64,000 nucleotides of DNA from Dehalococcoidia bacterium (GTDB lineage: Bacteria; Chloroflexota; Dehalococcoidia; Plut-88900), in assembly GCA_965249275.1 (NCBI GenBank), contig CBDFLQ010000007.1, positions 640,001-704,000 on the forward strand, read 5' to 3'. This document shows positions 6,768 to 58,718 of this stretch, one piece after another. Every line of letters starts with the position of its first letter. Within the stretch, counting starts at the first letter, position 1. Position numbers and translations under genes: made by a program. The notes below the pieces were generated by a model, which was not told the origin of the DNA, made no database searches, and was given only the letters and a program-made list of their open reading frames with translations.

Positions 6768-8066
6768 TTAGTGCCCATGCCCGTGTTCGTCAGCATGTTC
6801 ATCAGAATGCTCGTGCCCCGTCCTCACAAATGTCTCCCGCTTCCTCAACCTTACCGTCATCAACAGCGCTGCCGCGGCAATCAGTAGCGCGGCCGCATAG
6901 ACGAATACCCAGTCCATTCCCCAATGTTCATATATCAGCCCTGCAAATATCGGCGAGACCCCTCCCATAGCTATCCGCTCGAAGGAAAGGATCCCGAGGG
7001 CCGACCCCTGGCTCTCGGGGTCTACCATGTCCAATACCGCCGCCGTCAATATCGGCTGGTCGCTGTACAGGAAGAACCCCAGCATCGCGAGCAGCGCAGA
7101 GAAAAGTATCCCTTCTCCGTAGGGCGCCAGAAGGAACGTCAGAGCAGTCATCGCCAGCAATGACGGAATTATCACGATCTTCCGGCCTATGCGGTCCGAT
7201 ATGTAGCCCAGCGTGGGTGTCGCCACTATTCCTATGAAGACCAGCATCCCCATGTGGAACCCGACCCAGAACGTGTTGAATCCCAGTTCGTCTGTCATGT
7301 AGCTGGGCAGAAATGTTACCAGCGGCAGGTAGGCCATTCCCCTCAAACCCGCCACCAGCATCACGACCCACAGTGTGACGTTCTTCAGCAGCAGCCGGGT
7401 CATTTGCAGCTGCTCCCGCAAGCCTCTTTCCCGGTGCTTCTCCACCCCCCGAGACCCGATGTCCCTGAACGCCCAAAACACGATGAATGTGAGCAACAGA
7501 GGCACCACCGCATACACGCTTATGATCCCCCGCCAGCTCATGACCGTCAGGATTGCCCCTGTAGCCAATGGCCCGATAAAGTCGCCGAGGTTGCCGCCTA
7601 TACCGTGGAAGGACAGCGCTGTACCTTTCCGGTGTTGGAAGTGGTGTGATAACGCTCCCATAGCCGGCAGGTGCCATATCGAGCTGGCAACGGAGACGAT
7701 TACCATGCCAACCAGGATCACCGGGTAGATCGGCGACAGCCCAGTCAGTATCCACCCGAGCCCGAATACCAACATGCACAGGCTCAGCACGATGCCCCAA
7801 TAGGGGCGGAGAATGTCCAGGATCACCCCGCTGGGGAGCATCACCAGGCCCCCAGCTATCTCCCTCGTCGCCGTTATCGCCCCGACCTGAACCTTGTTAA
7901 GGCCAAATGTCGCTTCGATTTCCGGCAGCATTACCAGGAAGCTCTGGTTAAACCAGTGGAATATGCCGTGTCCCCCACTCAGGCCCGCCAGGATGAAGCT
8001 AGCCGTCTTTCTGACCGGCGTATCTTTCTCGGCATGGTCGAAGGGAGAACCGTGGTGGTGTGCCAT
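6768..8066 (-). CDS. MFS transporter with His-rich termini
   Basis: About 12 hydrophobic segments; GYISDRIGRK motif A; begins MAHHH and ends GHEHSDEHADEHGHGH. Confidence 0.9.
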   Translation of the reverse strand: MAHHHGSPFDHAEKDTPVRKTASFILAGLSGGHGIFHWFNQSFLVMLPEIEATFGLNKVQVGAITATREIAGGLVMLPSGVILDILRPYWGIVLSLCMLVFGLGWILTGLSPIYPVILVGMVIVSVASSIWHLPAMGALSHHFQHRKGTALSFHGIGGNLGDFIGPLATGAILTVMSWRGIISVYAVVPLLLTFIVFWAFRDIGSRGVEKHRERGLREQLQMTRLLLKNVTLWVVMLVAGLRGMAYLPLVTFLPSYMTDELGFNTFWVGFHMGMLVFIGIVATPTLGYISDRIGRKIVIIPSLLAMTALTFLLAPYGEGILFSALLAMLGFFLYSDQPILTAAVLDMVDPESQGSALGILSFERIAMGGVSPIFAGLIYEHWGMDWVFVYAAALLIAAAALLMTVRLRKRETFVRTGHEHSDEHADEHGHGH

Positions 8067-8374: not shown

Positions 8375-8466
8375 GGAGAGGTGCTGGAGTGGCCGAACAG
8401 GCGCGACTGGAAATCGCGTAGGGGGTGAAAGCTCTCTCGTGGGTTCGAATCCCATCCTCTCCGCCA
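8375..8466 (+). tRNA. tRNA-Ser(GGA)
   Basis: GGAGAGG/CCTCTCC acceptor stem, anticodon arm cgcga-CTGGAAA-tcgcg, long variable arm, GGTTCGAATCC T-arm, encoded CCA. Confidence 0.97.
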
Positions 8467-17066: not shown

Positions 17067-17329
17067 GTCATTCTCGGGCTTGACCCGAGAATCCATCCCG
17101 CTGCATAAGACCCTTGCATAACGCTGATGAAGGGGATTGGAGGGGAAGTGTCTCATCCCCTCTCCCTCGATGGGAGAGGGCTAGGGTGAGGGTGATTCCA
17201 TCGGGTGGGGCCGCTCGTGCTGAGGCCCTCGAAGTATGAGCGGGGGGGAGGGCCACTCGTGCTGCCGCAGATGGAACATCCGCCTATGGAGGATCCCGTT
17301 GAGGCGGAAGCCCGCCAAAGTACAAGCGG
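17067..17329 (+). repeat. Mosaic of palindromic repeats
   Basis: Family C GTCATTCTCGGG..CCCGAGAATCC (17067-17099), MITE-like end AGACCCTTGCATAA (17108), family D CCCTCTCCC..GGGAGAGGG..GGTGAGGG (about 17157-17195), family A (17211-17243), and a family A variant with a nested insert (17253-17329). Confidence 0.85.
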
Positions 17330-31810: not shown

Positions 31811-33352
31811 TCACCCCACCCCTCGTATCGCCCTCGGCAACAGAGGCAACAGGTCGCTCGCCAACAACCCCGCCTCCCCGACCTCCTCCCGACCCATCTC
31901 TCCCGCCAACCCGTGCAGATATACACCCGCCATTGCCGCCTCCCATGCCCCGAGCCCTTGCGCCAGGAGTCCCGCAATAGTCCCCGCCAGCACGTCGCCC
32001 GTGCCCGCCGACGCCAGCCCCGGATTCGCAAACGGGCTCACCACGGCATGGCCATCGGCTCGGGCAACCACCGTGTGCGCCCCCTTCAAGACCACCGTCT
32101 TACCCCACTTCCGTGCCGCCTCCCGAGCAGTCCCAATGCGGTCCCGCTGCACTTCCCCCGTCGAAGCGTGCATCAATCGCGACATCTCGCCAGGATGAGG
32201 CGTCAATACCGCCTCCCGACCCAGCTTCTCCCACCACCCGTCCTCCGAAGCCAACGCATTCAGCCCGTCCGCATCAACTACGGCGGGTGGGGCAGTCAAA
32301 TGTGAATCCAGAAGCAGCCCCTTCGCCAGTTCCCAGGCGCTTTCTGCTCTCCCTAGCCCACACCCGACCAGCAGCGCATCCGCCTCCTTCACTCCCTCTT
32401 CAATAGCCGTCCTCCACTCTTGCACACCTGCGTTTTCCTCGAGGGGGATATACGTCACCTCTGCCGCCCGGGAAGCGACTATCGACCGCACTACCGGAGA
32501 GCATGCCAAAGTCACCAGCCCAGCCCCGACCCTCGTCGCCGCCGCACATGCCAGATATGCCGCCCCCACGTACTGCCCCGACCCCGCAAGCGCCACTACC
32601 CGACCAAAGGTGCCCTTGTGTGCATCCGCCGGCCTCCGAGGCAGCAACTCCTTCACCCTTTCGCCCGTCAGCATCTCCAGCGAGATTTGTCGCGACAGCT
32701 CCACCGGTATCCCAATATCCGCAACGGCCAACCGTCCCGTCATCGAGGCGCCCGGGAACGCAAACATCCCGATCTTCGGGTAACCTAAGGCGACGGTGAA
32801 ATCTGCCGGTAGCCCTGCTTCGTCCCCCTGCCCCGAGTCTGCATCCACCCCTGACGGCAGGTCCATCGCCGCCACCCTTAAGTTCGGGTTGGACTCCTTC
32901 GCATTCCGCACTTCGGAGATTATTGCTTCGATATTCCCCGAAATCGGCCTCGACCTTCCCGTTCCCAGCACCGCGTCCACTACCACCTCCGCCGACCTGA
33001 GCCCCTCCCGCAACGCCGACAGCCCTTCCTCTTCATACGCGGCTATCGGGTCCAATCCCCTGTCAATGACCAGCTTTAAGTTCGGGTCCGACTCGGAGCG
33101 CGGGGAACATAGGAAGGCGTAGACATTCGCAATCCAATCATGGAGATACCGTGCTGCCACCAGCCCGTCTCCCCCGTTATTACCAGGCCCGACAAGCACC
33201 AGCACGTTCTTCCCCGTGACTCCGTCCATCCATTCCCTCACCTCCTCCGCAAACGCCCGACCCGCGTTCTCCATCAATTGCGACGTCGGAATCCCCTCCA
33301 ACTCGCACTGACCCTCGATCTCCCGCATCTCGGCGCTGTTCACTATCTTCAT
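31811..33352 (-). CDS. nnr: Bifunctional NAD(P)H-hydrate epimerase/dehydratase
   Basis: LMENAG, GNNGGDG, HKGTFG, TPHPGE, AGTGDVLAG. Confidence 0.95.
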   Translation of the reverse strand: MKIVNSAEMREIEGQCELEGIPTSQLMENAGRAFAEEVREWMDGVTGKNVLVLVGPGNNGGDGLVAARYLHDWIANVYAFLCSPRSESDPNLKLVIDRGLDPIAAYEEEGLSALREGLRSAEVVVDAVLGTGRSRPISGNIEAIISEVRNAKESNPNLRVAAMDLPSGVDADSGQGDEAGLPADFTVALGYPKIGMFAFPGASMTGRLAVADIGIPVELSRQISLEMLTGERVKELLPRRPADAHKGTFGRVVALAGSGQYVGAAYLACAAATRVGAGLVTLACSPVVRSIVASRAAEVTYIPLEENAGVQEWRTAIEEGVKEADALLVGCGLGRAESAWELAKGLLLDSHLTAPPAVVDADGLNALASEDGWWEKLGREAVLTPHPGEMSRLMHASTGEVQRDRIGTAREAARKWGKTVVLKGAHTVVARADGHAVVSPFANPGLASAGTGDVLAGTIAGLLAQGLGAWEAAMAGVYLHGLAGEMGREEVGEAGLLASDLLPLLPRAIRGVG

Positions 33353-33374
33353 CGACGTTCGACCTTGCTCACAC

Positions 33375-33770
33375 CTATCCCTCTACCATCGCAACTGCCG
33401 ACGCCACCGCGAACTCATCGGAATGCGACAGGCTTATCGCCACCTCCCCCAACCCCAGCTTACGAGCCCGAGCCTCGGCCCTGCGATACAGCTTCACCGT
33501 CGGCTTTCCGCTCGGCAGAGGCAGAATCTCGATCTCCCGCCACGCCACCCCCCTGTTCCCCGTCCCAAGCACCTTCATCACCGCCTCCTTGCCCGCAAAC
33601 CGTGCAGCGAGCTCCGGCACCCGGTTCCGATAGCGTTCTATCTCCTTGGGCGTGTACACACGAGCCAGGAATTTTTCGCCCCACCTCTCCAAAGCCGCCC
33701 TGATCCTGGGTATCTCTGTTATGTCTACTCCTACACTGGGATATGCACTGCCTGACAAGGCTTCTCTCAC
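33375..33770 (-). CDS. acpS: Holo-ACP synthase
   Basis: GVDITE, AARFAGKEA, ISLSH. Confidence 0.95.
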   Translation of the reverse strand: MREALSGSAYPSVGVDITEIPRIRAALERWGEKFLARVYTPKEIERYRNRVPELAARFAGKEAVMKVLGTGNRGVAWREIEILPLPSGKPTVKLYRRAEARARKLGLGEVAISLSHSDEFAVASAVAMVEG

Positions 33771-33878
33771 GGGTTAAGGGTAGCCGCGAGTATATCACCC
33801 CTTTTCCCGCCGTCGTTCCTTTCTGTCGCGTTCCTCATATCCTCCTCACTACCTGGACCCGGAGGCTCCATTTGCAGG

Positions 33879-33916
33879 GTCATTCCGAGGCTCCGCGAGG
33901 AATCTAGGACTTGCCC
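33879..33916 (+). repeat. Palindromic repeat family B (intact copy)
   Basis: GTCATTCCGAGGCTCCGCGAGGAATCTAGGACTTGCCC. Confidence 0.9.
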
Positions 33917-34257
33917 CATCACGCGCCTTACGCTACGCCCTCACTTACTTCCCCTTGTGTCACCAGCCCCCTTGCCCCTCACCACCCATCACCCATATCC
34001 TGTCCACGTGAAATCCGCATCGGCCCAACGCAATGCGTTCCACCCAAGCTGGCCGGGCCTCGGTCGAGCAATACGTCCATTCTCAGGAAAATACAGATGT
34101 ATGATTGATACGGTAATGCGGGATTTCCACAAACTATCAAATTTCGTGCCTGCTCCCCGAAGACAATCAAACGCAAAGCCGATTTACCTTGACTATCCGT
34201 CGCCATTTTGATTGTAAACTGTCAACTGCCGCCCATCGACTGAACAAGTGCCACAAA

Positions 34258-34287
34258 TTGACTCCCCAATTCTCGCAACGTTAGAAT
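34258..34287 (+). promoter_or_regulatory. Sigma-70 promoter candidate for valS
   Basis: TTGACT-N18-TAGAAT. Confidence 0.55.
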
Positions 34288-34362
34288 CGACCAACTTCTC
34301 TAGCGAAAGTTCCGAATACGTTATCCCCTCTCTCACCGACAACCTCACTACCGTAACTAACC

Positions 34363-37185
34363 ATGATTACCCGCACTGAAAACCTCGCCCGCATCCCAAA
34401 GGTCTACGACCCCACCGAGATCGAAGGCCGAATCTACAAGTTTTGGCTCGATAACGGCTACTTCACCCCAACCATAGAAGAGGGCAAGCAGCCCTTTGTC
34501 ATCATCATGCCGCCGCCCAACGTCACCGGCGAGCTTCACCTCGGCCACGCTCTGACTGCCGCCGCCGAGGACGCTCTCATCCGCTGGCATCGCATGATGG
34601 GCGACCCTACCCTCTGGCTCCCGGGCAGCGACCACGCCGGAATCGCAACTCAGGTCGTAGTCGAAAGACAGCTAGTCAAAGAGGGAAAGGCCCGGCAGGA
34701 AATAGGTCGCGAAGCTTTCGTTGCGAGGGTATGGGAATGGGTACGCCAATACGGTCGCACCATCGCAGAGCAGCACAAGAGACTCGGCGCTTCCTGCGAC
34801 TGGACCCGAGAGCGCTTCACCCTCGACGAAGGCCCCAGCCGCGCCGTACGCACCACTTTCGTCAACCTCTACCGCAAGGGCCTTATATACCGCGGCGAGC
34901 GCATCATCAACTGGTGCCCCCGATGCACGACCGCCCTCTCCGACCTCGAGGTCATCCACCAGGAAGTCGATAGCAATCTCTACTACATCCGCTATCCCCA
35001 CGCCCAGGACCCGACCCGCTACCTCACCGTCGCCACCACCCGTCCCGAGACCCTTCTCGGCGACACCGCTGTCGCCGTCAACCCCGACGACGAACGTTTC
35101 GCCGATTTCGTCGGCCAGAATGTGATCCTCCCCCGTCTAAACCGCCCCATCCCCGTCGTCGCCGACACCGCAGTCGACACAGAGTTCGGCACCGGCGCCG
35201 TCAAAGTAACCCCAGCCCATGATCCCAACGACTTCGATATCGCCCAGCGCCACAACCTTCCCCTAATCACTGTAATCGGGCCCCGGTCTTCAATGACCGA
35301 GGCCGCTGGGCCCCAATACACCGGCTTGACCGTCGCAGAGTGCCGAGCCCGCATCCTCCAGGACCTCGAATCCGATGGTCTGCTCGCAAAGGCCGAACCC
35401 CTCACCCACTCCGTTGGGCACTGCCAGCGCTGCAACACAGTCGTCGAACCTATGGCCGGTAAGCAGTGGTTCGTCAAGGTCGGCCCCATGGCTGAGGCCG
35501 CCGCCGCCGCCGTCACCGAGGGCCGTATCCGCATAGTCCCAGACCGCTTCACCAAGGTCTATTTGAACTGGATGGACAACATCCGAGACTGGTGCATCAG
35601 CCGCCAGCTCTGGTGGGGCCATCGTATCCCCGTCTGGTATTGTGATCGGTGCGAACACCTCACCGTCGCTCTGGATGACCCAACAGCCTGCGAGGGTTGT
35701 GGCTCGACCGATATTCGCCAGGACCCCGACGTCCTGGACACATGGTTCAGCTCCGGCCTCTGGCCCCATTCCACCCTCGGCTGGCCCGACAACACCGACG
35801 ACCTCCGCTATTTCTACCCCGGCGCAGTCCTCGAAACAGGCTACGATATCCTCTTCTTCTGGGTCGCCCGCATGATCATGCTCGGCATCCAGAACATGGG
35901 CGACATACCCTTCCACACTGTATATCTCCACGGCCTCATCCAGGACGAACACGGCGAGAAGATGAGTAAGGTGAAGGGCAACGTACTCAATCCCCTCGAA
36001 ATCATCGACGAGCACGGCGCCGACGCCCTCCGCTTTGCCCTCACCGTCGGCACCGCCCCCGGCAACGACAGCCGGCTCAGCGAGGCCAAGATTCGGTCCA
36101 GCCGCAACTTCACCAACAAGCTCTGGAACGCCTCCCGCTACGTCATCTCCATCCTCGACCAAGCCCCATCATCCCCCCCCGTCATTCCTGCGGAGGCAGG
36201 CCGAAGGTCCGCCGAGGAGGAAATCCATCCCCCCCAACCCTCTACTTTATCATCCCAAGACCAGGCAAATATGTCATTCCGACGCTCCGCGAGGAATCTA
36301 GGACTTGCCCACTCAACTTCCTCATCGCAATCCCCTCCCTCCGATTCCCTCCCCATCGAAGACCGCTGGATCCTGAGCCGCTTCCAACGCACCGTCGAGG
36401 ACGTCACCCGCGCCCTCAACGGCTTCCGTCTCGGCGACGCCCAGGAGTACGTCCACGACTTCATCTGGAACGAGTTCTGCGACTGGTATATCGAAATAGC
36501 CAAGATTCGCCTCCGGGACCTTTCCGACTCCCCCTCCCCCGCCCCCGTCCTGGCTCAGGTCCTCGACGGCGCTCTTCGCCTACTCCACCCCTTCATGCCC
36601 TTCATAACCGAGGAAATCTGGCAAACCCTCGTCCAACGAATGCCCGCATCCGGTGATCAGACCGGCTCCATAATGGTCGCCCCATACCCCACCCCCGACC
36701 CCGCCGCCATCGACTCGGAAGCCGAGGAGTGGGCCGGCCTTCTAATGGCCCTCGTCCGCGGTGTACGCAACGTCCGCGCAGAGCGCAAAGTCGAGGCAAG
36801 TAAGAAAATCCTGGCCGTCCTGTTGGATGGCGAGACCCTTGGACCCGGAGGCCAATCTTTCTTAGAAACCCTCGCCCAATGCTCCGTCGAGGCACACGCC
36901 GGCAACACCTCTCAACCAGAGAACTCCATCATGGTCGTCGAAAAGGCCACCCGAGTCTTCCTCCCCCTCGCCGGCCTCTTCGACTTCGCCGTTGAACGAA
37001 ATCGCCTTGAATCAGCCCTTGGGGAATTGGGCAAGAGGATCGCCCAGATCGAGTCCCGCCTTGAGAACAAGCAATTCCTCTCCAAAGCTCCCCCCGACGT
37101 TGTCGAAAAGGAACGCACCCGCCTCTCCGGCTGGCGAGAAGAGGAAGCCAACTTCCTCCACCGCCTCGGTGAACTGGGTCAATAG
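34363..37185 (+). CDS. valS: Valine--tRNA ligase with a repeat-derived in-frame insertion
   Basis: PPPNVTGELHLGH, WCISRQLWWGH, KMSK, C-terminal coiled coil. Confidence 0.98.
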   Translation: MITRTENLARIPKVYDPTEIEGRIYKFWLDNGYFTPTIEEGKQPFVIIMPPPNVTGELHLGHALTAAAEDALIRWHRMMGDPTLWLPGSDHAGIATQVVVERQLVKEGKARQEIGREAFVARVWEWVRQYGRTIAEQHKRLGASCDWTRERFTLDEGPSRAVRTTFVNLYRKGLIYRGERIINWCPRCTTALSDLEVIHQEVDSNLYYIRYPHAQDPTRYLTVATTRPETLLGDTAVAVNPDDERFADFVGQNVILPRLNRPIPVVADTAVDTEFGTGAVKVTPAHDPNDFDIAQRHNLPLITVIGPRSSMTEAAGPQYTGLTVAECRARILQDLESDGLLAKAEPLTHSVGHCQRCNTVVEPMAGKQWFVKVGPMAEAAAAAVTEGRIRIVPDRFTKVYLNWMDNIRDWCISRQLWWGHRIPVWYCDRCEHLTVALDDPTACEGCGSTDIRQDPDVLDTWFSSGLWPHSTLGWPDNTDDLRYFYPGAVLETGYDILFFWVARMIMLGIQNMGDIPFHTVYLHGLIQDEHGEKMSKVKGNVLNPLEIIDEHGADALRFALTVGTAPGNDSRLSEAKIRSSRNFTNKLWNASRYVISILDQAPSSPPVIPAEAGRRSAEEEIHPPQPSTLSSQDQANMSFRRSARNLGLAHSTSSSQSPPSDSLPIEDRWILSRFQRTVEDVTRALNGFRLGDAQEYVHDFIWNEFCDWYIEIAKIRLRDLSDSPSPAPVLAQVLDGALRLLHPFMPFITEEIWQTLVQRMPASGDQTGSIMVAPYPTPDPAAIDSEAEEWAGLLMALVRGVRNVRAERKVEASKKILAVLLDGETLGPGGQSFLETLAQCSVEAHAGNTSQPENSIMVVEKATRVFLPLAGLFDFAVERNRLESALGELGKRIAQIESRLENKQFLSKAPPDVVEKERTRLSGWREEEANFLHRLGELGQ
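36181..36315 (+). repeat. Family C repeat (with 21-nt insert) and family B repeat inside valS
   Basis: GTCATTCCTGCGGAGGCAGG[36201-36221]AATCCATCCC and GTCATTCCGACGCTCCGCGAGGAATCTAGGACTTGCCCACTCA (36273-36315). Confidence 0.9.
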
Positions 37186-37202
37186 CAGTCCACCAAGAGA
37201 CC

Positions 37203-37299
37203 GTTATTCCTGCGGAGGCAGGAATCCAGGGGAAGTGTGGGGTTGGGTCCGATCCTCGGGGCGGGGCCGCTCGTGCTGAGGCTCTCGAAGTATGAGCGG
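37203..37299 (+). repeat. Family C (37203-37228) and family A (37267-37299) repeats
   Basis: GTTATTCCTGCGGAGGCAGGAATCCA; CCGCTCGTGCTGAGGCTCTCGAAGTATGAGCGG. Confidence 0.9.
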
Positions 37300-37405
37300 G
37301 GGGCGGAGGAAGGATTAGACAAGCGGCCACTTTGCATAGTATGTCTACTCATCGCAATATGCTTCCACATCAAGACTTGTCCAATGCCCCCATAGGGCAT
37401 AGACC

Positions 37406-38410
37406 ATGAAGTTCGCCGTCAGCGTCTTCGGCAACCAGCCCATGCCCCGGATCGTCCAACGCGTGCAAATGATCGAGGCCCTCGGCTTCGACGCCGTCTG
37501 GTTCGGAGACCTCCAACGCATATGCCGCGAGGTGTACGTGGAGATGACGGCCTGTGCCCTGAACACGTCCAGGATCACTCTCGGTATAGGCGTCACTATG
37601 CCCACCACCCGACACGCCAGCGTCACGGCCAGCGCCTTCGCCTCCCTTCACGATCTGGCCCCCGGCCGCATTCGTGCAGGCATCAGCACAGGAGACAGCG
37701 GCGTCCGCTCAATAGGCCGCCGCCCCGAGCCCATTGCCAGTCTCGAGTCCTACATTCGCCAGGTTAAGGGCCTGCTCCAAAATGAGGTCGTGGAGTTCGA
37801 CGAAGGCGGCAAAGCCAAACTCGCCTGGCTGCAATCCCCGACTGACATACCCATTTACGTCGCCGCCACCGGCCCCCGGCTCACCCGAGCCGCAGGCCGC
37901 ATGGCCGACGGCGCTATCCTCCTCAGAGAACGAGGCCCTGCCCAAATGTCGGCAGGCGTCGAGATGTTCAAGGAATCCGCAAGGGCTGCAGGCAAAACAC
38001 CCGCCGACACCAAGTTGTCCTGCTGGCTTCAGACCTGCCTCGGCCCCGACCGCACCCTCGCCCGACGCAAGCTCAACGGCCCCGTCGGCGTCATCATCAA
38101 CATGTCCAACCCCGCACTTTTCGACGAAGAAGATCTGCCCTTGATTGCCAAGCTTAAGGCTAACTACAACCCGTCAAAGCACTCCCGCTCCTACATTTCC
38201 GACGAGTTCCGCATCCCGGACAAGTACATCGACCGCTTCGCCTTGGGCGGCGACCGAGAAGATGCAATCTCCTGCATAAAGCAGCTATCCACGGTCGAGG
38301 GCCTGGACGAGATTATCCTCGCCCCTCAGCACATCCCCGAAGTCCCCGGCCCCACAGTCGACGAGACCATCCGCTACTTCGCCGAAGAAGTCCTCCCTCA
38401 CGTAGCCTGA
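37406..38410 (+). CDS. LLM class oxidoreductase (Mer/F420-like subgroup)
   Basis: GFDAVWFGD, RITLGIGVT, GISTGDS, IPIYVAATGPR, ADG. Confidence 0.88.
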   Translation: MKFAVSVFGNQPMPRIVQRVQMIEALGFDAVWFGDLQRICREVYVEMTACALNTSRITLGIGVTMPTTRHASVTASAFASLHDLAPGRIRAGISTGDSGVRSIGRRPEPIASLESYIRQVKGLLQNEVVEFDEGGKAKLAWLQSPTDIPIYVAATGPRLTRAAGRMADGAILLRERGPAQMSAGVEMFKESARAAGKTPADTKLSCWLQTCLGPDRTLARRKLNGPVGVIINMSNPALFDEEDLPLIAKLKANYNPSKHSRSYISDEFRIPDKYIDRFALGGDREDAISCIKQLSTVEGLDEIILAPQHIPEVPGPTVDETIRYFAEEVLPHVA

Positions 38411-38594
38411 CCCCCCCGTCCCCCTACACTCCGTCTACCCCATAGGCCAATTGCATCGCAACTAGGCATTTGAGAGTTATTTGTGCGTAAGCAGGTGATT
38501 CGGAAGGTAGAAGAGCCAAGCGCTCTTCTACGGACGCAAGGTAGTGCCCCTCACTGCCTTGCCGAGCTAAGTTAAGTTGAAAGCGTGTAAGTGG

Positions 38595-39221
38595 TCAGGC
38601 AATCGCACGCTTGGACAAGTCCAGTAGAGTCGCATCTCTTCCCGGGGCAAACGCAGATCCTGGTCTTGAAGGCTCCAAATAGGTGACGGCGTCATAAAAG
38701 TCGTCTAGCGCAACAAATATGCCGTTCTCCTCGGCCCAACGTCGCATTCGCTGGTTACAGGAGTGCGCCCAAGACAGTATTTCAACTTTCCAACCTCGCT
38801 TGTGCATACGTTCCAAGGTGCTGTGAAAGCCTGCCCCTTCGGAGTAACCAGCGCCGTCTCCAGTTAGCAATACTACAATCCCCGGATTTCCATTGTTGTC
38901 CAGAGCATCCTCCAGCATTCGCAATTGCAACACCCTATCGGGTATATCCTGCTCTCCCCGCTCGGGGTCGCCACGGTCGAACAGTTTCACCTCCACCCCC
39001 ATATTCTCCAGTCTGTTCCATAAGTGACGCATCTCCGGTGGCACTGACCCGGCAGCCACTGCATGCATCAACGGTCTCTCGGCTTGGGCAAGTTGAAGTA
39101 GCGCATCGAAGTTAATTCGCACTCTGTATCGAGCATCGGGTCCTTCGTTACGCTCCCCCGCCAACCGCTGCGCCTCATGGAAGATGTTCGAATTGTCCCA
39201 ATAAATGAATACTCCAACCAT
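38595..39221 (-). CDS. NYN-domain (PIN-like) protein
   Basis: YWDNSN, LLTGDG and GWKVEILSW motifs; visibly more AT-rich than its neighbours. Confidence 0.85.
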   Translation of the reverse strand: MVGVFIYWDNSNIFHEAQRLAGERNEGPDARYRVRINFDALLQLAQAERPLMHAVAAGSVPPEMRHLWNRLENMGVEVKLFDRGDPERGEQDIPDRVLQLRMLEDALDNNGNPGIVVLLTGDGAGYSEGAGFHSTLERMHKRGWKVEILSWAHSCNQRMRRWAEENGIFVALDDFYDAVTYLEPSRPGSAFAPGRDATLLDLSKRAIA

Positions 39222-39406
39222 AGTGTTTCTCTATCTAATTTGCACCTTTGTTATGTCGCGTGTCCGCTCACATGACCGTATTTTGGGGCACCTGCCCATT
39301 GCTACCTAAGTTTAACACTACTTCACAGATGCATTGTTCCTCCCCCCGTGTTGTATACTCTCCCCGACAACACAACCCCCCAACCCACGACCTAAGGAGA
39401 CCGCCA

Positions 39407-40855
39407 ATGCCATCTACCATCAAGGAACAGCTCTGGTACGGCGACCACTGGATGGACGTCGACCTCCCGGAACGCACCAGGGTCCTCCAGGCTAATGGCC
39501 ACTCCTCCGCCAAGCCTGTCGCCAACTTGGAAGCCTCTATCAGAGAGGCCATCGCCAACCCCATCGCCCATGACCCCATCCACAAGTTGGTCGGCAAGGG
39601 CGCCAAAGTCACTATTGCCTTCGACGACCCAGGCGGCGTCCAGACCAAGGGCGTCGACTTCCGGCAAGTAGCCATCAGCGTCCTGCTCGAAGAGCTCCAG
39701 AAGGCAGGCGTCGAACTCTCCGACATCCTCCTACTCTGCGCCAACGCCCTCCACCGCAAGTGGACCCGTTCTGAGCTCGCGCCCATTGTCGGCGAGCGCA
39801 TCAGCGTCCTCTGGCCCGCCCAACGCCTCCGCTGCCACGATGCAGAGAACCCTGACGAACTGATATTCCTCGGCGAAACCCACCGCGGCTTCGAGGTAGA
39901 GGTCAACCGAGCCGTCACCGATTCTGACCTCCTCATCTATCTCAACATCACCCATATCCCCTTCGGCGGCGGCTGGAAATCCGTCGCCGTCGGCCTCGGC
40001 ACCTTCCGCAGCATCAGGCACCACCACCGGCCCTTCCCCTTCGCCTCCGGCAAGTCCGTAATGGACCCCAAGATTTCCTCCTTCCACAAGCTCGTTTGGG
40101 AGCAGGGCAAGGTTATTGAAGATCACCTGGCAAAAAAGGGGCGACGCATCTTCAGTATCGAGTCCGTGGTTACAGCAACCGACCCCCCCGAGGTCACCGC
40201 CGTTTTCGCAGGTCACACCCCGGATGTCCACAACCACACTCTTGACGCCCTCAGCTCCCTCCAGGTTTTGGATGTCGACGGGCAGAGCGATATTGGCCTC
40301 TACGGCGTCACCAGCAAGACCGGTTACGCTCACAACTCCTTCATCAACCCGCTCCTGGTCACCGACCAGGGATTTGAATACACCTACAGCATGTTTCAGA
40401 ACCAGCCCCTGATCCGACCGGGCGGCATCATCATCCTCGCCCACCCTTGCAAGAACCAGTTCGACGACATCCACCACCCCTCTTACCGGGAGTTCTACGA
40501 GCGGCTCCTTCCCATGACCCTGGATCCCTACGAGCTTTGGAACCTCTTCTCAGACGACTTCGCCCATCGCCCAGAGTTCATCCACAAGTACCGTTATGGC
40601 TACGGCTACCACGGTTCTCACCCCTTCTTCATGTGGAACACCCGAGGCGCCCCCTCCCGACACCTCTCCGGCATGTTCCTCGCCGGCGCCACCGATTTCG
40701 AGGTCGCGCGCCACATGGGCTTCGAGCCTTTCCACACAGTAGAGGACGCCATCGCTGAGGCGGAAACCCGTCTTGGGAAGGACGCTTCAATCTCCTTCCA
40801 CAAGTCGCCCCCCACCTCCATAGCACGGGTCAACGGAACAAACGGCGCCCACTAG
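39407..40855 (+). CDS. Lactate racemase (LarA/DUF2088) domain protein
   Basis: VTIAFDD, ANALHRK, CHDAE, GGGWKS; AAGGAGA RBS before ATG 39407. Confidence 0.8.
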   Translation: MPSTIKEQLWYGDHWMDVDLPERTRVLQANGHSSAKPVANLEASIREAIANPIAHDPIHKLVGKGAKVTIAFDDPGGVQTKGVDFRQVAISVLLEELQKAGVELSDILLLCANALHRKWTRSELAPIVGERISVLWPAQRLRCHDAENPDELIFLGETHRGFEVEVNRAVTDSDLLIYLNITHIPFGGGWKSVAVGLGTFRSIRHHHRPFPFASGKSVMDPKISSFHKLVWEQGKVIEDHLAKKGRRIFSIESVVTATDPPEVTAVFAGHTPDVHNHTLDALSSLQVLDVDGQSDIGLYGVTSKTGYAHNSFINPLLVTDQGFEYTYSMFQNQPLIRPGGIIILAHPCKNQFDDIHHPSYREFYERLLPMTLDPYELWNLFSDDFAHRPEFIHKYRYGYGYHGSHPFFMWNTRGAPSRHLSGMFLAGATDFEVARHMGFEPFHTVEDAIAEAETRLGKDASISFHKSPPTSIARVNGTNGAH

Positions 40856-40927
40856 CTCCTTAATTCGGGTCCACAGCAACCATTAGTCCGGACAGGCCTT
40901 AGGTTACTTAACTGGAGGAGGTTGAAT

Positions 40928-41995
40928 ATGGAACTGCCGTTTAAGGTGATGGATGCTGATGGCCATATAGCTGAGGACGTCTCCCGGATTAAGGAGTATC
41001 TGGAGCCGCCCTACAACGACAACCTTTGGGTAGGCGTACCCGATAGTCAGGGTCGCGTCGGCCACGCCACCAGCCTGGCCGACACCTCGTTCGTAGACAC
41101 CACTATGGGCGGAAGCATGGGGAGCGTCGGGCCTCCAGGCTATCCATTCCCGAAGGACTGGCTTGAGGCCCTCGAATGGGGAGGGATGGACACCACCTTC
41201 CTGTTCCCGACCAACCTGCTCGGATACGGCAACATCTTCGACCCCGACTACATGCTCGCCCTCACCCGCGCCTACAACAACTACGTCTCCGACGAATGGT
41301 TGAAGACGAGCCCCCGTCTGAGAGCCGTATCCCTCGTGCCACTGCTCGATGTCGGCGAAGGCGTCAAGGAAATGCGGCGCACCATAACTGAGTTGGGTTT
41401 TTCAGGAGTGACAGTCCCCGCACACGGGTTCGGGGGGCTGGGAGACAGGAGGTACGATCCTTTCTATGAAGAGGCCCAGAGCTTGGGGTGCCTGGTTGCC
41501 GTGCATGGAAACACCCCGGAGTACATGCGCTTCAACAAGTTCATCCAGAAGCACACCGCCTCTTTCCCCATGTCTAACATGCTTCAGCTTGTGCATATGA
41601 CCTACGAAGGCATCTTCGAAAGGTTCCCGAATCTCCGGGTGGGATACCTGGAAGGGGGTTGCACTTGGGTCCCATTCTTCATGAATCGGATGGACGAGGA
41701 ATGGGAGAAGCGGGGCCATCTTGAAGCCAAGAGTTGCAAGAAAGAGCCCAGCGAATACATCAAGTCCGACATGGTCTTCTTCCATGCCGAACCCTCCGAG
41801 GATCTCATACCCCAGGTCGTCGAGCTGCTCGGCGAAAACTCCCTCTTCTACGCCTCCGACTGGCCTCATTGGGACAACGAATACCCCGACAATGTCGCCC
41901 AGTTCTGGAATCGCGACGACCTGAGCTACAGCGCCAAGAAAGCCATACTTTCGGACAACACCCGCCGGATGTACGGCATGGGCCCGGACGACTAA
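40928..41995 (+). CDS. Amidohydrolase_2 family protein
   Basis: DADGHIAE, FERFPNLRVGYLEGG, YASDWPHWD; GGAGGAGG RBS. Confidence 0.93.
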   Translation: MELPFKVMDADGHIAEDVSRIKEYLEPPYNDNLWVGVPDSQGRVGHATSLADTSFVDTTMGGSMGSVGPPGYPFPKDWLEALEWGGMDTTFLFPTNLLGYGNIFDPDYMLALTRAYNNYVSDEWLKTSPRLRAVSLVPLLDVGEGVKEMRRTITELGFSGVTVPAHGFGGLGDRRYDPFYEEAQSLGCLVAVHGNTPEYMRFNKFIQKHTASFPMSNMLQLVHMTYEGIFERFPNLRVGYLEGGCTWVPFFMNRMDEEWEKRGHLEAKSCKKEPSEYIKSDMVFFHAEPSEDLIPQVVELLGENSLFYASDWPHWDNEYPDNVAQFWNRDDLSYSAKKAILSDNTRRMYGMGPDD

Positions 41996-42019
41996 AGCCC
42001 CCCCATCCCCAGGGTGGGG

Positions 42020-42095
42020 CCGCTCACCATGTCGTAGATCCGCCGAGGCGGGAGCTTGCTGCAAGTCCGCTGAGGCGGATCGAAGGGTCGAGCGG
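42020..42095 (+). repeat. Family A-like repeat carrying two 21-nt inserts
   Basis: CCGCTCACCATG[42032-42052]AGCTTG[42059-42079]TCGAAGGGTCGAGCGG. Confidence 0.8.
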
Positions 42096-42181
42096 GGGCA
42101 CGCACTGCCAATCCGTCACGTACACACAACCCCACCCAACTCTTTGCACATTGTCATTCCGAGGCTCCGCGAGGAATCTAG

Positions 42182-43377
42182 GAAACCTCTGAACAAGTCT
42201 AAGTGCATAGGTAATAGGTAAGATAAGGAGAGTAAGGCCAAAGCTGAGGTGAGATTTGATGGAGCAGCCGACATTTGCAGACTTGGAATACGAGGGCAAG
42301 AAGCGAAAGACCCGCCGGGAGATATTTCTGGAGCGGATGGAGGACCTGGTTCCATGGGGAAAGTTAGAGGAGCGAATCCGGCCCTACTATTCCAGGGCGG
42401 GCCGTGGACGGAGGCCCTACGAGTTGTCGGTGATGCTGCGGATACACTGCGTGCAGCTGTTCTACAACCTGAGCGATCCGGGCATGGAGGACATGCTCTA
42501 CGAGGTGGAGTCGGTGAGGCGGTTCGCAGGTCTGAGGCTGTCCGGCCCCTTGCCTGACGAGACTACGATACTGAACTTCCGCCATCTGCTGGAAGAGCAG
42601 GAGTTGGGTCGGGGGCTGTTCGAGGAGATCAACCGTCATCTGGAGTCTCGGGGACTGAGGCTCAGGGAGGGTACGATTGTGGATGCGAGCATCATCGAGG
42701 CGCCGGCGTCTACGAAGAACCGTGCTGGAGAGCGAGACCCCGATATGCACCAGGTGAAGAAGGGGAAGGAGTGGCACTTCGGTATGAAAGTGCACATTGG
42801 TGCAGACGCTGACACGGGGGTGGTGCACAGTATGAGTACGACAGCTGCGAACGTGCATGACATGACGGAGGCGCACCGGCTGCTGCATGGAGGGGAGAGG
42901 CGAGTGTGGGGAGATGCGGAATATCAGGGAGTGGAGAAGCGGGCGGAGAATCGGGATATGGATGTGGAGTGGCGGGTGGCGATGAGACCTGGACGGCGTC
43001 GGAAACTGAGGGCGGGGAGCTGCGAGGCCTTGGCGGAGAAGAGCAAATCATCCATCAGGGCTAAGGTGGAGCATCCGTTCCTGTACGTGAAACGGCACTT
43101 CGGCTACGCCAAGGTCCGCTACAGGGGCTTGTACAAGAACACGCAACGGGTGGCGATGCTGCTGGGGCTGGCCAACTTGGTAAGGGCCGAGCGCCACTTA
43201 GCGGTGTGACGGAGGAGCAGTGTGGTCAAATCCGGGTCGATGGTGACTGGATGCCCTGACAGGCCAGAACATAGGATGCAAATAAGCCACCGAGACGCAA
43301 CATTACGACCCAACCTCTCCCCAAAACTCCATGCAAGACAACCTAAGCTGGTTTACAGTGAGTTGTTCAGAGCTTCC
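42182..43377 (+). mobile_element. IS5 family insertion sequence (1196 bp) inserted in a family B repeat
   Basis: Terminal inverted repeats GAAACCTCTGAACAA / TTGTTCAGAGCTTCC (13/15); CTAG target duplication at 42178-42181 and 43378-43381; the joined flanks rebuild repeat B. Confidence 0.95.
42259..43209 (+). CDS. IS5 family DDE transposase
   Basis: LSDPGMED, PDETTILNFRH, VDASII, WHFGMKVH, WGD, RAKVEHPF. Confidence 0.97.
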   Translation: MEQPTFADLEYEGKKRKTRREIFLERMEDLVPWGKLEERIRPYYSRAGRGRRPYELSVMLRIHCVQLFYNLSDPGMEDMLYEVESVRRFAGLRLSGPLPDETTILNFRHLLEEQELGRGLFEEINRHLESRGLRLREGTIVDASIIEAPASTKNRAGERDPDMHQVKKGKEWHFGMKVHIGADADTGVVHSMSTTAANVHDMTEAHRLLHGGERRVWGDAEYQGVEKRAENRDMDVEWRVAMRPGRRRKLRAGSCEALAEKSKSSIRAKVEHPFLYVKRHFGYAKVRYRGLYKNTQRVAMLLGLANLVRAERHLAV

Positions 43378-43384
43378 CTAGGAC

Positions 43385-44113
43385 TTGCCCACTCACCTAC
43401 CGCATTCCCAATCCTCCCCTCTTAACACTCTCCTCCGCCAGGCTCTCGCCGAGCACGCAGACCCCGCGAAGGCCGAGGGCATGAAACGCTACATGAAGTC
43501 GGAGATGCCCTACCGCGGCGTCCAGACGCCCCTGTTGCGCCGACTCTGCAAAGATGTATTTCGCCGCTACCCCATCCCGGACAAGGAAGATTGGCAAGCC
43601 GCGGTGCTGGACTTGTGGAGAAACGCCTCCTATCGCGAGGAACGCTACGCGGCTATAGATCTCGCCGGGGCTAAACGCTACGAACCTTTCCGCACCCTCG
43701 ACACCCAAACCCTTTGCGAGGAGATGATAGTAACAGGCGCCTGGTGGGACTACGTTGACTCCATAGCCTCCCACCGCCTACGAGAGCTACTTGAGAAGTA
43801 CCCCGCCGAGATGTCTCAGGAAATGAGAGCATGGAGCCGTGACCGCGATATGTGGAAGCGCCGCTCTTCAATAATCTGCCAACTCAACCGCAAGTCCCAC
43901 ACCGACCTCGCCCTCCTCTTCGACTGCATCGACCCCAACCTCTCCGACCCCGACTTCTTCATCCGCAAGGGCATCGGCTGGGCCCTTCGCTCTTTGGCCT
44001 GGACGAACCTGGATACGATCGAAGATTACATAGCCCGCAACCGAGACCGTATAAGCCCCCTAAGCCGCCGCGAGGCTTTAAAGAACGCCCAGAAGATTAG
44101 ACATGCCTCTTAA
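43385..44113 (+). CDS. DNA alkylation repair protein (AlkD-like)
   Basis: YMKS, WWDYVD, FFIRKGIGWALR, LSRREALK; the TTG start lies in a repeat remnant. Confidence 0.88.
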   Translation: MPTHLPHSQSSPLNTLLRQALAEHADPAKAEGMKRYMKSEMPYRGVQTPLLRRLCKDVFRRYPIPDKEDWQAAVLDLWRNASYREERYAAIDLAGAKRYEPFRTLDTQTLCEEMIVTGAWWDYVDSIASHRLRELLEKYPAEMSQEMRAWSRDRDMWKRRSSIICQLNRKSHTDLALLFDCIDPNLSDPDFFIRKGIGWALRSLAWTNLDTIEDYIARNRDRISPLSRREALKNAQKIRHAS

Positions 44114-44128
44114 CTCGTCTCCATAGAT

Positions 44129-44273
44129 GAGACCTTTTACAACGTGCAATGAAGGGGCCGGGGCCGCTCGTGCTGTCGTAGATCCGCCGAGGCTGGAGGC
44201 TCTCGAAGTATGAGCGGGGAGGAGGTCATCTGGGTGACACAACAGGTGCGATTTGTAGCTATGCAAGGGTCGC
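44129..44273 (+). mobile_element. Degenerate MITE-like element with a family A core and a 21-nt insert
   Basis: Ends GAGACCTTTTACAA / CTATGCAAGGGTCGC; aligns along its length with 58591-58718. Confidence 0.6.
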
Positions 44274-58483: not shown

Positions 58484-58718
58484 GTCATTCCTGCCCCCGC
58501 AGGAATCCATCCCTCTCAGTTCTTCTTGGGTGACGCCTTTGCCTAACCCTATCGGAGAGCTTGGCGGGCGTCCTACATCCCCTACTGGTCGAGACATTTG
58601 CGTAACCAGTGTTGGAGGGGCGGGGGCCGCTCGTGCTGAGGCTCTCGAAGTATGAGCGGGGGGGGTTAGGTGATCTGGATAGCACTAAAGATGCAATCTG
58701 AAGTCACAAAAAGGTGCC
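58484..58718 (+). repeat. Repeat mosaic: family C (58484-58513), degenerate hairpin (58532-58576), MITE-like element (58591-58718) with family A core (58627-58659)
   Basis: GTCATTCCTGCCCCCGCAGGAATCCATCCC; GACGCC..GGCGTCCTAC; GAGACATTTGCGTAA..; CCGCTCGTGCTGAGGCTCTCGAAGTATGAGCGG. Confidence 0.8.

Follow-up and report, generated by a model that had tools for sequence, protein, structure and literature searches.

A REP-like tagged mini-hairpin of 21 or 22 nucleotides, precisely present or absent within the palindromic repeats of a Dehalococcoidia genus

In a stretch of 64,000 nucleotides from the genome of a Dehalococcoidia bacterium (C7:640001-704000 of genome G000, hereafter the window), several palindromic repeats are interrupted by the same short unit, which consists of an unpaired tag of 7 nt followed by a GC-rich stem of 6 bp closed by a loop of 2-3 nt, for a total of 21 or 22 nt. 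The best explanation, to which we assign a probability of roughly two in three (0.68), is that this unit is a miniature repeat, similar to repetitive extragenic palindromic (REP) sequences, which spreads and vanishes as a whole module. By anatomy it is a REP-like mini-hairpin of the GTAG-tagged type, and by behaviour it is like the small dispersed repeats (SDRs) of cyanobacteria; it is thus of a known kind. What is new here is the lack of a REP-associated tyrosine transposase (RAYT), the head-to-tail arrangement and the strand polarity. The source genome (2.9 Mb, 7 contigs, 59% G+C) is 87% complete and belongs to a genus sample of nine genomes, one per species (G000-G008), six of which consist of a single contig; G005 is a closed genome.

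The units of the window and the repeats that host them or show their empty form are listed below, with the kind of evidence in brackets (PWM, position weight matrix; ORF, open reading frame).

44176..44196, + strand: 21-nt unit TCGTAGA+TCCGCC-GA-GGCTGG with a decayed stem, in the loop of a family A repeat (sequence, indel scan, PWM)
44160..44219, + strand: filled family A palindrome hosting the preceding unit, with an 11-bp stem that includes two G.T pairs (sequence, folding)
42032..42052, + strand: 21-nt unit TCGTAGA+TCCGCC-GA-GGCGGG, the first of two in a family-A-like host (sequence, PWM)
42059..42079, + strand: 21-nt unit CTGCAAG+TCCGCT-GA-GGCGGA, at the second site of the family-A-like host, directly 5' of TCGAAGG (sequence, PWM)
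42020..42095, + strand: family-A-like palindrome CCGCTCACCATG...TCGAAGGGTCGAGCGG, host of these two units (sequence, quantised loop lengths, folding)
36201..36221, + strand: 21-nt unit CCGAAGG+TCCGCC-GA-GGAGGA in family C, in frame within valS (sequence, ORF)
36181..36230, + strand: family C palindrome (GTCATTCCTGCGGAGGCAGG^AATCCATCC) within valS, host of the preceding unit (sequence, orthologues)
34363..37185, + strand: valS ORF, intact, 940 aa, with an in-frame repeat stack at about 36170-36330 (ORF, orthologues)
17265..17308, + strand: nested pair of 22-mers (sequence, PWM; nesting common to G003)
17265..17308, + strand: outer 22-mer of the pair, CCGCAGA + TCCCGT-TGA-GGCGGA, interrupted between tag and hairpin
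17272..17293, + strand: inner 22-mer of the pair, TGGAACA+TCCGCC-TAT-GGAGGA
37263..37303, + strand: empty family A copy (sequence)
58623..58665, + strand: empty family A copy (sequence)
17206..17245, + strand: empty family A copy adjoining the nested pair (sequence)
37203..37232, + strand: empty family C copy (sequence)

The sequence-only reading from which this analysis started had delimited six units in the window, each of which we found at its place, and had noted that all face the same way; a PWM run on the window returned exactly the five positions cited for them, all on the + strand. Removal of exactly 21 nt at 44176 or 36201 indeed gives the empty copies at 37263-37303 and 58623-58665 or at 37203-37232, respectively, and each outer unit is preceded by TG or GG as described. 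The absence of a multi-base target duplication also held, with the qualification that at most sites the boundary can be drawn on either side of a single G, and hence a duplication of 1 nt is possible.

These few paralogous cases belong to a large set in the genome. A scan blind to the motif, in which positions flanked by repeated 12-mers were asked whether a deletion of 8-80 nt yields a 24-mer present elsewhere in the genome, gave 236 collapsed indel events in G000, with 38 of 21 nt and 35 of 22 nt; the next commonest lengths were 72 nt (18), 24 nt (14) and 18 nt (11). The PWM-defined unit overlaps 54 of the 73 events of 21 or 22 nt, the other 19 including several weaker variants and a few unrelated duplications. 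At 16 bits the PWM finds 268 units in G000 vs 11 in the reversed genome, at 14 bits 322 vs 25, while the exact unit pattern has no match in the reverse-read control. The working set was fixed at 290 units scoring at least 15 bits, which bears out the expectation of further copies across the genome. The same quantum emerges from the hosts: among 158 matches to the family A group, 108 have 6-7 nt from arm to arm, 28 have 27-29 nt and 2 have 49-50 nt.

Within the working set the units form sub-variants of a common plan. Their tags fall into the classes TCGNAGA, CTGMAAG and TGGAACA, the most frequent being TCGAAGA (70), TGGAACA (29), CTGAAAG (29), CCGTAGG (27), TCGCAGA (22) and TCGTAGA (20), and they have G as their third and A as their fifth base in common. 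The loop has 2 nt in 159 units (GA in 104) and 3 nt in 131 (TCT, TTT or TCA). The two lengths are found at similar rates within crudely called ORFs of at least 300 aa, which contain 19 of the 159 21-mers vs 13 of the 131 22-mers, the calls being rough. The main stems are TGCGCC/GGCGTG (50, with two G.T pairs), TCCGCC/GGAGGA (35, with one G.A mismatch) and TCCGCC/GGCGGG (25). That the hairpin is real and strand-specific follows from its pattern of change. Across 216 distinct sequences, 88.2% of the stem cells are paired, vs 80.6% on average and 82.4% at most in 500 shuffles, and the second pair of the stem covaries (C-G 98, G.T 59, T-A 24). On the tag strand there are 194 G.T wobbles vs 29 A.C, and it is therefore the tag strand that folds. 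As DNA, this strand folds better than its complement by about 3 kcal/mol at three of the four loci tried; the filled family A host at 44160..44219, for instance, gave -13.9 kcal/mol for the top strand vs -10.6 for the bottom strand. Hammerhead-like and CRISPR-repeat-like readings of the tag, suggested by eye, were dropped because the core letters differ and Rfam is silent: it matches a single tRNA gene in the window (8375-8463) and nothing at 14 unit loci of several phyla.

How does such a module sit in its hosts? From 48 clean events we obtained 26 distinct contexts of 8+8 nt, and units lie in at least five other repeat families as well as at the in-frame valS site, so that the description of the unit as a discrete module of 21/22 nt, placed precisely and in one orientation within unrelated families, is well borne out. 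The base 5' of the unit is G in 42 of the 48 events, while on its 3' side A (29) is more frequent than T (14) or C (5); the top junctions are TG^AG (17), GG^AG (7) and GG^TG (6). The alignment of filled and empty sites consequently defines the ends to within 1 nt, since boundary ambiguity is 0-1 nt at most sites and usually one G; as a target motif it yields only the preceding G, mostly in the form G^A, and no fixed tetra- or pentanucleotide appears 5' of the unit among the 48 events. In family A, TCGNAGA units follow CTG on the 5' side of the loop and CTGMAAG units lie directly before TCGAAG on its 3' side. In families B, C and E the unit is found at the start of the 3' arm, and in family D within the 3' arm; some units separate the tag of another unit from its hairpin, and others form tandem head-to-tail arrays. 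The proposal that hairpin DNA is the target was hence right for the loops of palindromic repeats, but too narrow for the 3' arms, the tag/hairpin junctions and one non-palindromic site among those compared between G005 and G000.

Among the hosts, the family D copy at window 17158-17196 fits the TMECO/BoxC pattern CCCTCNCCC-N3-6-GGGNGAGGG-N3-GGGNGAGGG, an intrastrand-triplex pattern that the parts of PMC4666352 drawn on here describe for Proteobacteria. Here the pattern occurs in Chloroflexota, family D having 61 copies in G000, and a D-like host holds the unit in an Acidobacteriota genome (G034); copies of family D filled by the unit would escape a triplex finder restricted to loops of 1-6 nt.

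Presence and absence are equally precise at orthologous sites. One loop of valyl-tRNA synthetase (ValRS) bears a different in-frame repeat stack in each of the nine species of the genus, built of families B, C, D-like, E-like and partial duplications, with stack lengths equal modulo 3 in all nine. The unit is present at this site in one of the nine species, G000, in the order family C, unit, family B; family C is empty in G003 and G007 and missing from G005, G008 and G001, and the site has a family-D-like repeat in G002 and G006 and other repeats in G004. A unit of seven codons can indeed survive in coding sequence, as had been supposed from its in-frame position in valS. At the family A orthologue of 44176, G000 and G002 hold the same decayed TCGTAGA unit, while G003 is without it and has a CTGAAAG unit at the other loop site. 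A wider comparison took 33 units from twenty 20-kb samples of G005, of which 13 have syntenic flanks in G000 and 20 do not. The 13 syntenic sites comprise 6 that are equal, 5 that differ by exactly one unit and 2 with larger events; all five one-unit differences are filled in G005 and empty in G000. Such seamless differences of exactly 21/22 nt between orthologues, without target duplication, are of the kind expected for IS200/IS605 elements. Contigs assembled from four public runs over window 33000-42140 break at the repeats and contain no 21-nt variant, which counts neither for nor against such variation.

The units are moreover strongly polarised with respect to base composition. The GC skew of G000 is very strong and patchy, reaching +-0.18 per 50 kb (about +-0.2 per 20-50 kb when samples of G005 are included) and changing sign inside contigs, and genes do not follow it. 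For 222 of 260 units (85%) in regions of G000 with |skew| of at least 0.03, the tag is on whichever strand is locally richer in C; in G005 this holds for 29 of 32 units. Neighbouring units less than 300 nt apart have the same orientation, head to tail, in 75 cases vs 7 with opposite orientation. Polarity is in fact a property of the whole repertoire of small repeats, as all six host families (A, A2, B, C, D and E) are oriented like the unit, with 89-100% of their copies following the local skew. Family D, which is rich in G, is found on the C-rich strand. The skew of the Acidobacteriota genome is below 0.05 in absolute value.

The distribution of the unit extends well beyond the source genome. 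The pattern TCGNAGATSCGCCNNGGCGK, with at most one mismatch, has 12-101 copies in seven of the nine genomes of the genus and none in G006 and G008, and its loop varies with the species: GA in G000, G002, G003 and G005, and TG, TA or TC in G001, G004 and G007. In 392 other genomes of the class the same pattern occurs 19 times in one (G338) and at most 6 times in each of the rest, with 0-2 matches in reversed controls. An exact scan of one genome per prokaryote species returned at least 76 loci. Among the matches listed, there are metagenome-assembled genomes of the same genus titled 'Dehalococcoidia bacterium', several copies each in Planctomycetota, Acidobacteriota and unclassified-bacteria assemblies, where they lie within host hairpins, and single matches in cultured GC-rich bacteria, which may be due to chance. 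When up to two mismatches are allowed, five genomes from other phyla each contain 16-40 copies of the 20-nt core (controls 0-1), and the hosts differ between phyla while the unit stays the same. In a Phycisphaerae sequence (L148 of G035, positions 7700-7770), three TCGAAGA-tagged hairpins with different stems lie head to tail, which is the tandem habit in another phylum.

The earlier suggestion that the unit was unnamed and new in kind did not stand, since a tag next to a short GC-rich hairpin with a loop of 2-3 nt and G.T pairs is the very definition of GTAG-type REPs (Di Nocera, De Gregorio and Rocco 2013, PMC3733652; here and below, statements on this work refer to the parts of it drawn on here). 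These REPs have an unpaired tetranucleotide tag beside a GC-rich stem of 5-13 bp, a loop of 2-3 nt and frequent G.T pairs, and those of Thermomicrobium roseum (Chloroflexi), called GTAG-23, are inserted within small palindromes of which empty copies abound; our likening of GTAG-23 to the unit follows their description only. The same work reports REPs inside genes, as well as a second superfamily that has no transposase of its own (PMC3733652). The likeness comprises the tag, the short stem, the G.T pairs, sub-families with complementary changes in the stem, intragenic copies, family sizes and patchy distribution (PMC3733652). The 6-bp stem of the unit, with its covariation and its 194 G.T pairs, falls within the REP range, and the TCGNAGA/CCGNAGG class contains GTAG, GAAG or GCAG within the tag; the CTGMAAG and TGGAACA classes (about 46 and 36 of the 290 units) contain no such tag. 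In contrast to GTAG REPs, which occur mostly as inverted dimers (PMC3733652), the unit is arranged head to tail, nests in itself, is tied to GC skew and has no RAYT in nine genomes. With 75 vs 7 neighbour pairs, the head-to-head or tail-to-tail dimers typical of bacterial interspersed mosaic elements (BIMEs) or REP doublets forming hairpins (REPINs) are not the rule here, and no RAYT gene flanked by REPs, the arrangement called REPtron, is present in the nine genomes. Inverted pairs of units lying 300-4000 nt apart in G000 number 10 and have nothing telling about them, their ORFs not having been scanned.

Other systems offer partial parallels. The ends of IS200/IS605, their transposase-less derivatives and the REPIN-RAYT system share with the unit a guide-like tetranucleotide 5' of a hairpin, the lack of target duplication, seamless presence or absence and a strand-polar distribution; as outlined in parts of Quentin et al. 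2018 (PMC6006769) and Bertels and Rainey 2011 (PMC3116915), they depend on an HUH enzyme of the Y1 type and on a hairpin at both ends or a doublet of inverted REPs. In IS200/IS605-type elements, the active strand is found on the lagging-strand template; the orientation of the unit has been related here to GC skew. Unlike them, the unit has one hairpin, no doublets and no Y1 gene. The palindromic elements of Rickettsia are likewise small palindromic repeats lying in frame in conserved protein genes (PMC3733652), but they are longer, and here one ValRS loop has different stacks in nine species.

The behaviour of the unit matches that of the SDRs of Nostoc and relatives. These repeats, from Elhai et al. 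2008, are said to be hairpins of 21-27 nt with compensatory changes, nested in other repeats and in themselves; reportedly they are limited to a coherent species group and were proposed as the smallest mobile elements, an RNA intermediate being favoured. We know of no enzyme for SDRs and of no report of skew polarity among them. They resemble the unit in size range, compensated hairpin, nesting in repeats and in themselves and restriction to a coherent group of species, and differ from it in phylum, in sequence and in the favoured RNA intermediate, as reverse transcriptase is absent from G000.

In mechanistic terms, the most likely view of a repeat that spreads and vanishes as a module is that it would enter directly 3' of a G, mostly at G^A, in one orientation and with no multi-base duplication. 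The favoured sites would be foldable single-stranded DNA, such as the loops of palindromes, their 3' arms, tag/hairpin junctions and positions head to tail beside other units, and the unit could be lost again base-exactly. The reaction may involve one strand only, at or behind the replication fork, with a cut-and-rejoin enzyme acting in trans, such that a single-stranded hairpin module would be inserted or excised next to G in transiently single-stranded, folded DNA. The analogy with HUH chemistry arises because the sites are seamless, the tag lies like a guide 5' of the hairpin and the distribution is strand-polar. It is possible, though we would not favour it, that an HUH-type enzyme is encoded off the chromosome or is too divergent for Pfam; the remaining share goes to another enzyme or to transposase-free copying between repeats. 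Since 21 nt correspond to seven codons, copies in tolerant protein loops, as at the valS site, would persist.

Several results weigh against this explanation. Because the copies within a genome are related to one another, as are the sister species, the counts make the support look stronger than it is, and many copies may be amplified composites of host plus unit, in which case the independent insertions may number tens rather than hundreds; the 21 units inspected in the Acidobacteriota genome all share a single host context. Because all the host families are polarised like the unit, its polarity may be inherited from them. Moreover, dnaA is not located at a skew switch in G000, G005 or G002, and no consistent assignment of the leading strand came from it, from the 16S gene (a single copy), from the L2 gene or from 44 tRNA genes. 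Finally, at one of the sites compared between G005 and G000, the unit is filled in G005 and G002 and empty in G000, while G000 and G002 share derived substitutions; G000 must then have undergone a base-exact loss, unless insertion recurred at one site. Filled thus looks like the ancestral state here, and empty like the derived one, which is what the sequence-only reading had named as evidence against itself. That evidence applies to part of the data, in which precise loss or recurrent insertion also occurs, and gain and loss both look precise.

The search for a catalyst adds to these difficulties, as none was found among Y1_Tnp, RVT_1, IS110, TnpB and the multi-copy genes of G000. The Pfam domain Y1_Tnp, which covers TnpA of IS200/IS605 and RAYT, is absent from all nine genomes of the genus, of which six are single-contig, with G000 being 87% complete and plasmids lying outside the records; the same search found it in 6 of 14 reference genomes, including E. 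coli. The likeness to HUH substrates noted earlier thus persists in layout, without the corresponding gene in the genus, and RAYT/IS200 was rejected as the driver. The anticipated co-occurring gene failed to emerge among reverse transcriptases too: RVT_1 is present in three of the nine genomes, G000 not being among them, and does not track the unit. IS110 (four of nine, missing from G000, G001 and G007) and TnpB (one or two of nine, missing from G000) mismatch the distribution of the unit as well. Outside the genus, Y1 genes are present in six of six unit-bearing genomes tested, yet none of the 10 Y1 loci examined, 8 of them in such genomes, has a unit within 1.5 kb; two Y1 genes of a Phycisphaerae contig have units at a distance of 2-3 kb. 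In G000, all multi-copy genes to which a name can be given are DDE insertion sequences.

These multi-copy genes, an IS5-like family, an IS481/rve-like family and an rve-like insertion sequence of 1,056 bp, were also rejected as drivers. The last one, at C6:56205-57260 (L040), has 12 copies in all with 90-99% identity, and its real gene, judged by eye, encodes an rve-like integrase of 320 aa on the strand opposite to the longest ORF. Other multi-copy 'ORFs' (L043-L046 and L048) have no Pfam match, and L044 and L045, which were read, look non-coding. The stretches L043, L044 and L045 span 0.8-1.2 kb with 4 copies each, and are probably non-coding repeats; L044 and L045 have only Pro/Arg-rich reading frames and each contains a unit in a conserved hairpin context, of which L044 shows filled and empty variants.

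In the most far-reaching view, tagged hairpins would be self-contained substrates of a strand-specific, fork-linked and RAYT-free insertion and excision that polarises the whole small-repeat repertoire in several phyla, and the catalyst may be an undescribed enzyme or the host's own replication and repair proteins. We consider this a tentative idea, with odds well short of even.

The main rival is exchange between dispersed host repeats. It is unlikely, in our judgement, that the unit has no dedicated mobility, and that a few tens of old insertions have since been swapped between filled and empty states by gene conversion or template switching, with composites amplified whole. The host repeats are numerous, each of the six families having 10-93 copies in G000 (empty A 47, A2 93, B 62 and D 61), and family A lies within a longer conserved context; the locus filled in G005 and G002 but empty in G000, the single host of the Acidobacteriota units and the failure of any transposase to track the unit would all be accommodated. 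Yet identity around the unit inside a host extends for only about 16-23 nt, and the same unit types recur in 26 contexts, including other units, valS and a non-palindromic site. Exchange also fits poorly with the orthologues of 44176, which hold different unit classes at different sites in sister species, and with hosts that vary between phyla while the unit remains constant.

If instead the filled forms were ancestral throughout, the empty ones would have arisen by hairpin-promoted replication slippage deleting the unit. Hairpins are deletion hot spots, as is generally known and discussed in PMC3733652, and the one orthologous site described above fits a loss in G000. However, the direct repeat around the unit is of only 1 nt, the valS unit is present in one species of nine while two outgroups have an empty family C, and empty family A copies outnumber filled ones by 108 to 30. 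Unrelated host families would still need at least one insertion per context, and slippage as the general explanation is very improbable.

Least likely of all is a functional cis element, whether RNA stabiliser, terminator or protein-binding DNA hairpin, that is kept by selection and spreads as a by-product: the conservation of the 20-nt core across phyla, the confinement of G.T pairs to one strand side and the excess of units in convergent over divergent spacers (41 vs 24, against 463 vs 462 in the genome) would suit it, but orientation tracks GC skew (85%) rather than the upstream gene (120 of 203 intergenic units, 59%) and is mixed inside ORFs (39 same vs 48 opposite to the gene), copies decay, the one at 44176 having lost stem pairs in G000 as well as in G002, the unit is missing from two species of the genus and Rfam has no matching family.

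If the unit is indeed a module that spreads and vanishes whole, its interest goes beyond this genus. The multiplication of REP-like repeats is a long-standing open question, and base-exact gain and loss between sister species whose genomes are closed, in a lineage that lacks the sole enzyme put forward for these repeats, offers a clean comparative system in which to find the catalyst, or show that none is needed. The unit also explains how one loop of the essential ValRS became a repeat dump, and warns annotators that seven-codon inserts in Dehalococcoidia proteins may be repeat units. That six repeat families are almost wholly polarised along the GC skew suggests a process or filter linked to replication, which to our knowledge has not been described for REPs.

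A last observation concerns the surroundings of the two-unit host of the window. At 42150-43390, an IS5-like element interrupts a family B repeat at its CTAG; family B also has an uninterrupted copy, in valS at about 36275-36320. The ORF of this element (42256..43209) encodes 317 aa, a length equal to that of the 11-copy DDE_Tnp_1/DUF772 family of the genome, to which it is likened by length alone.

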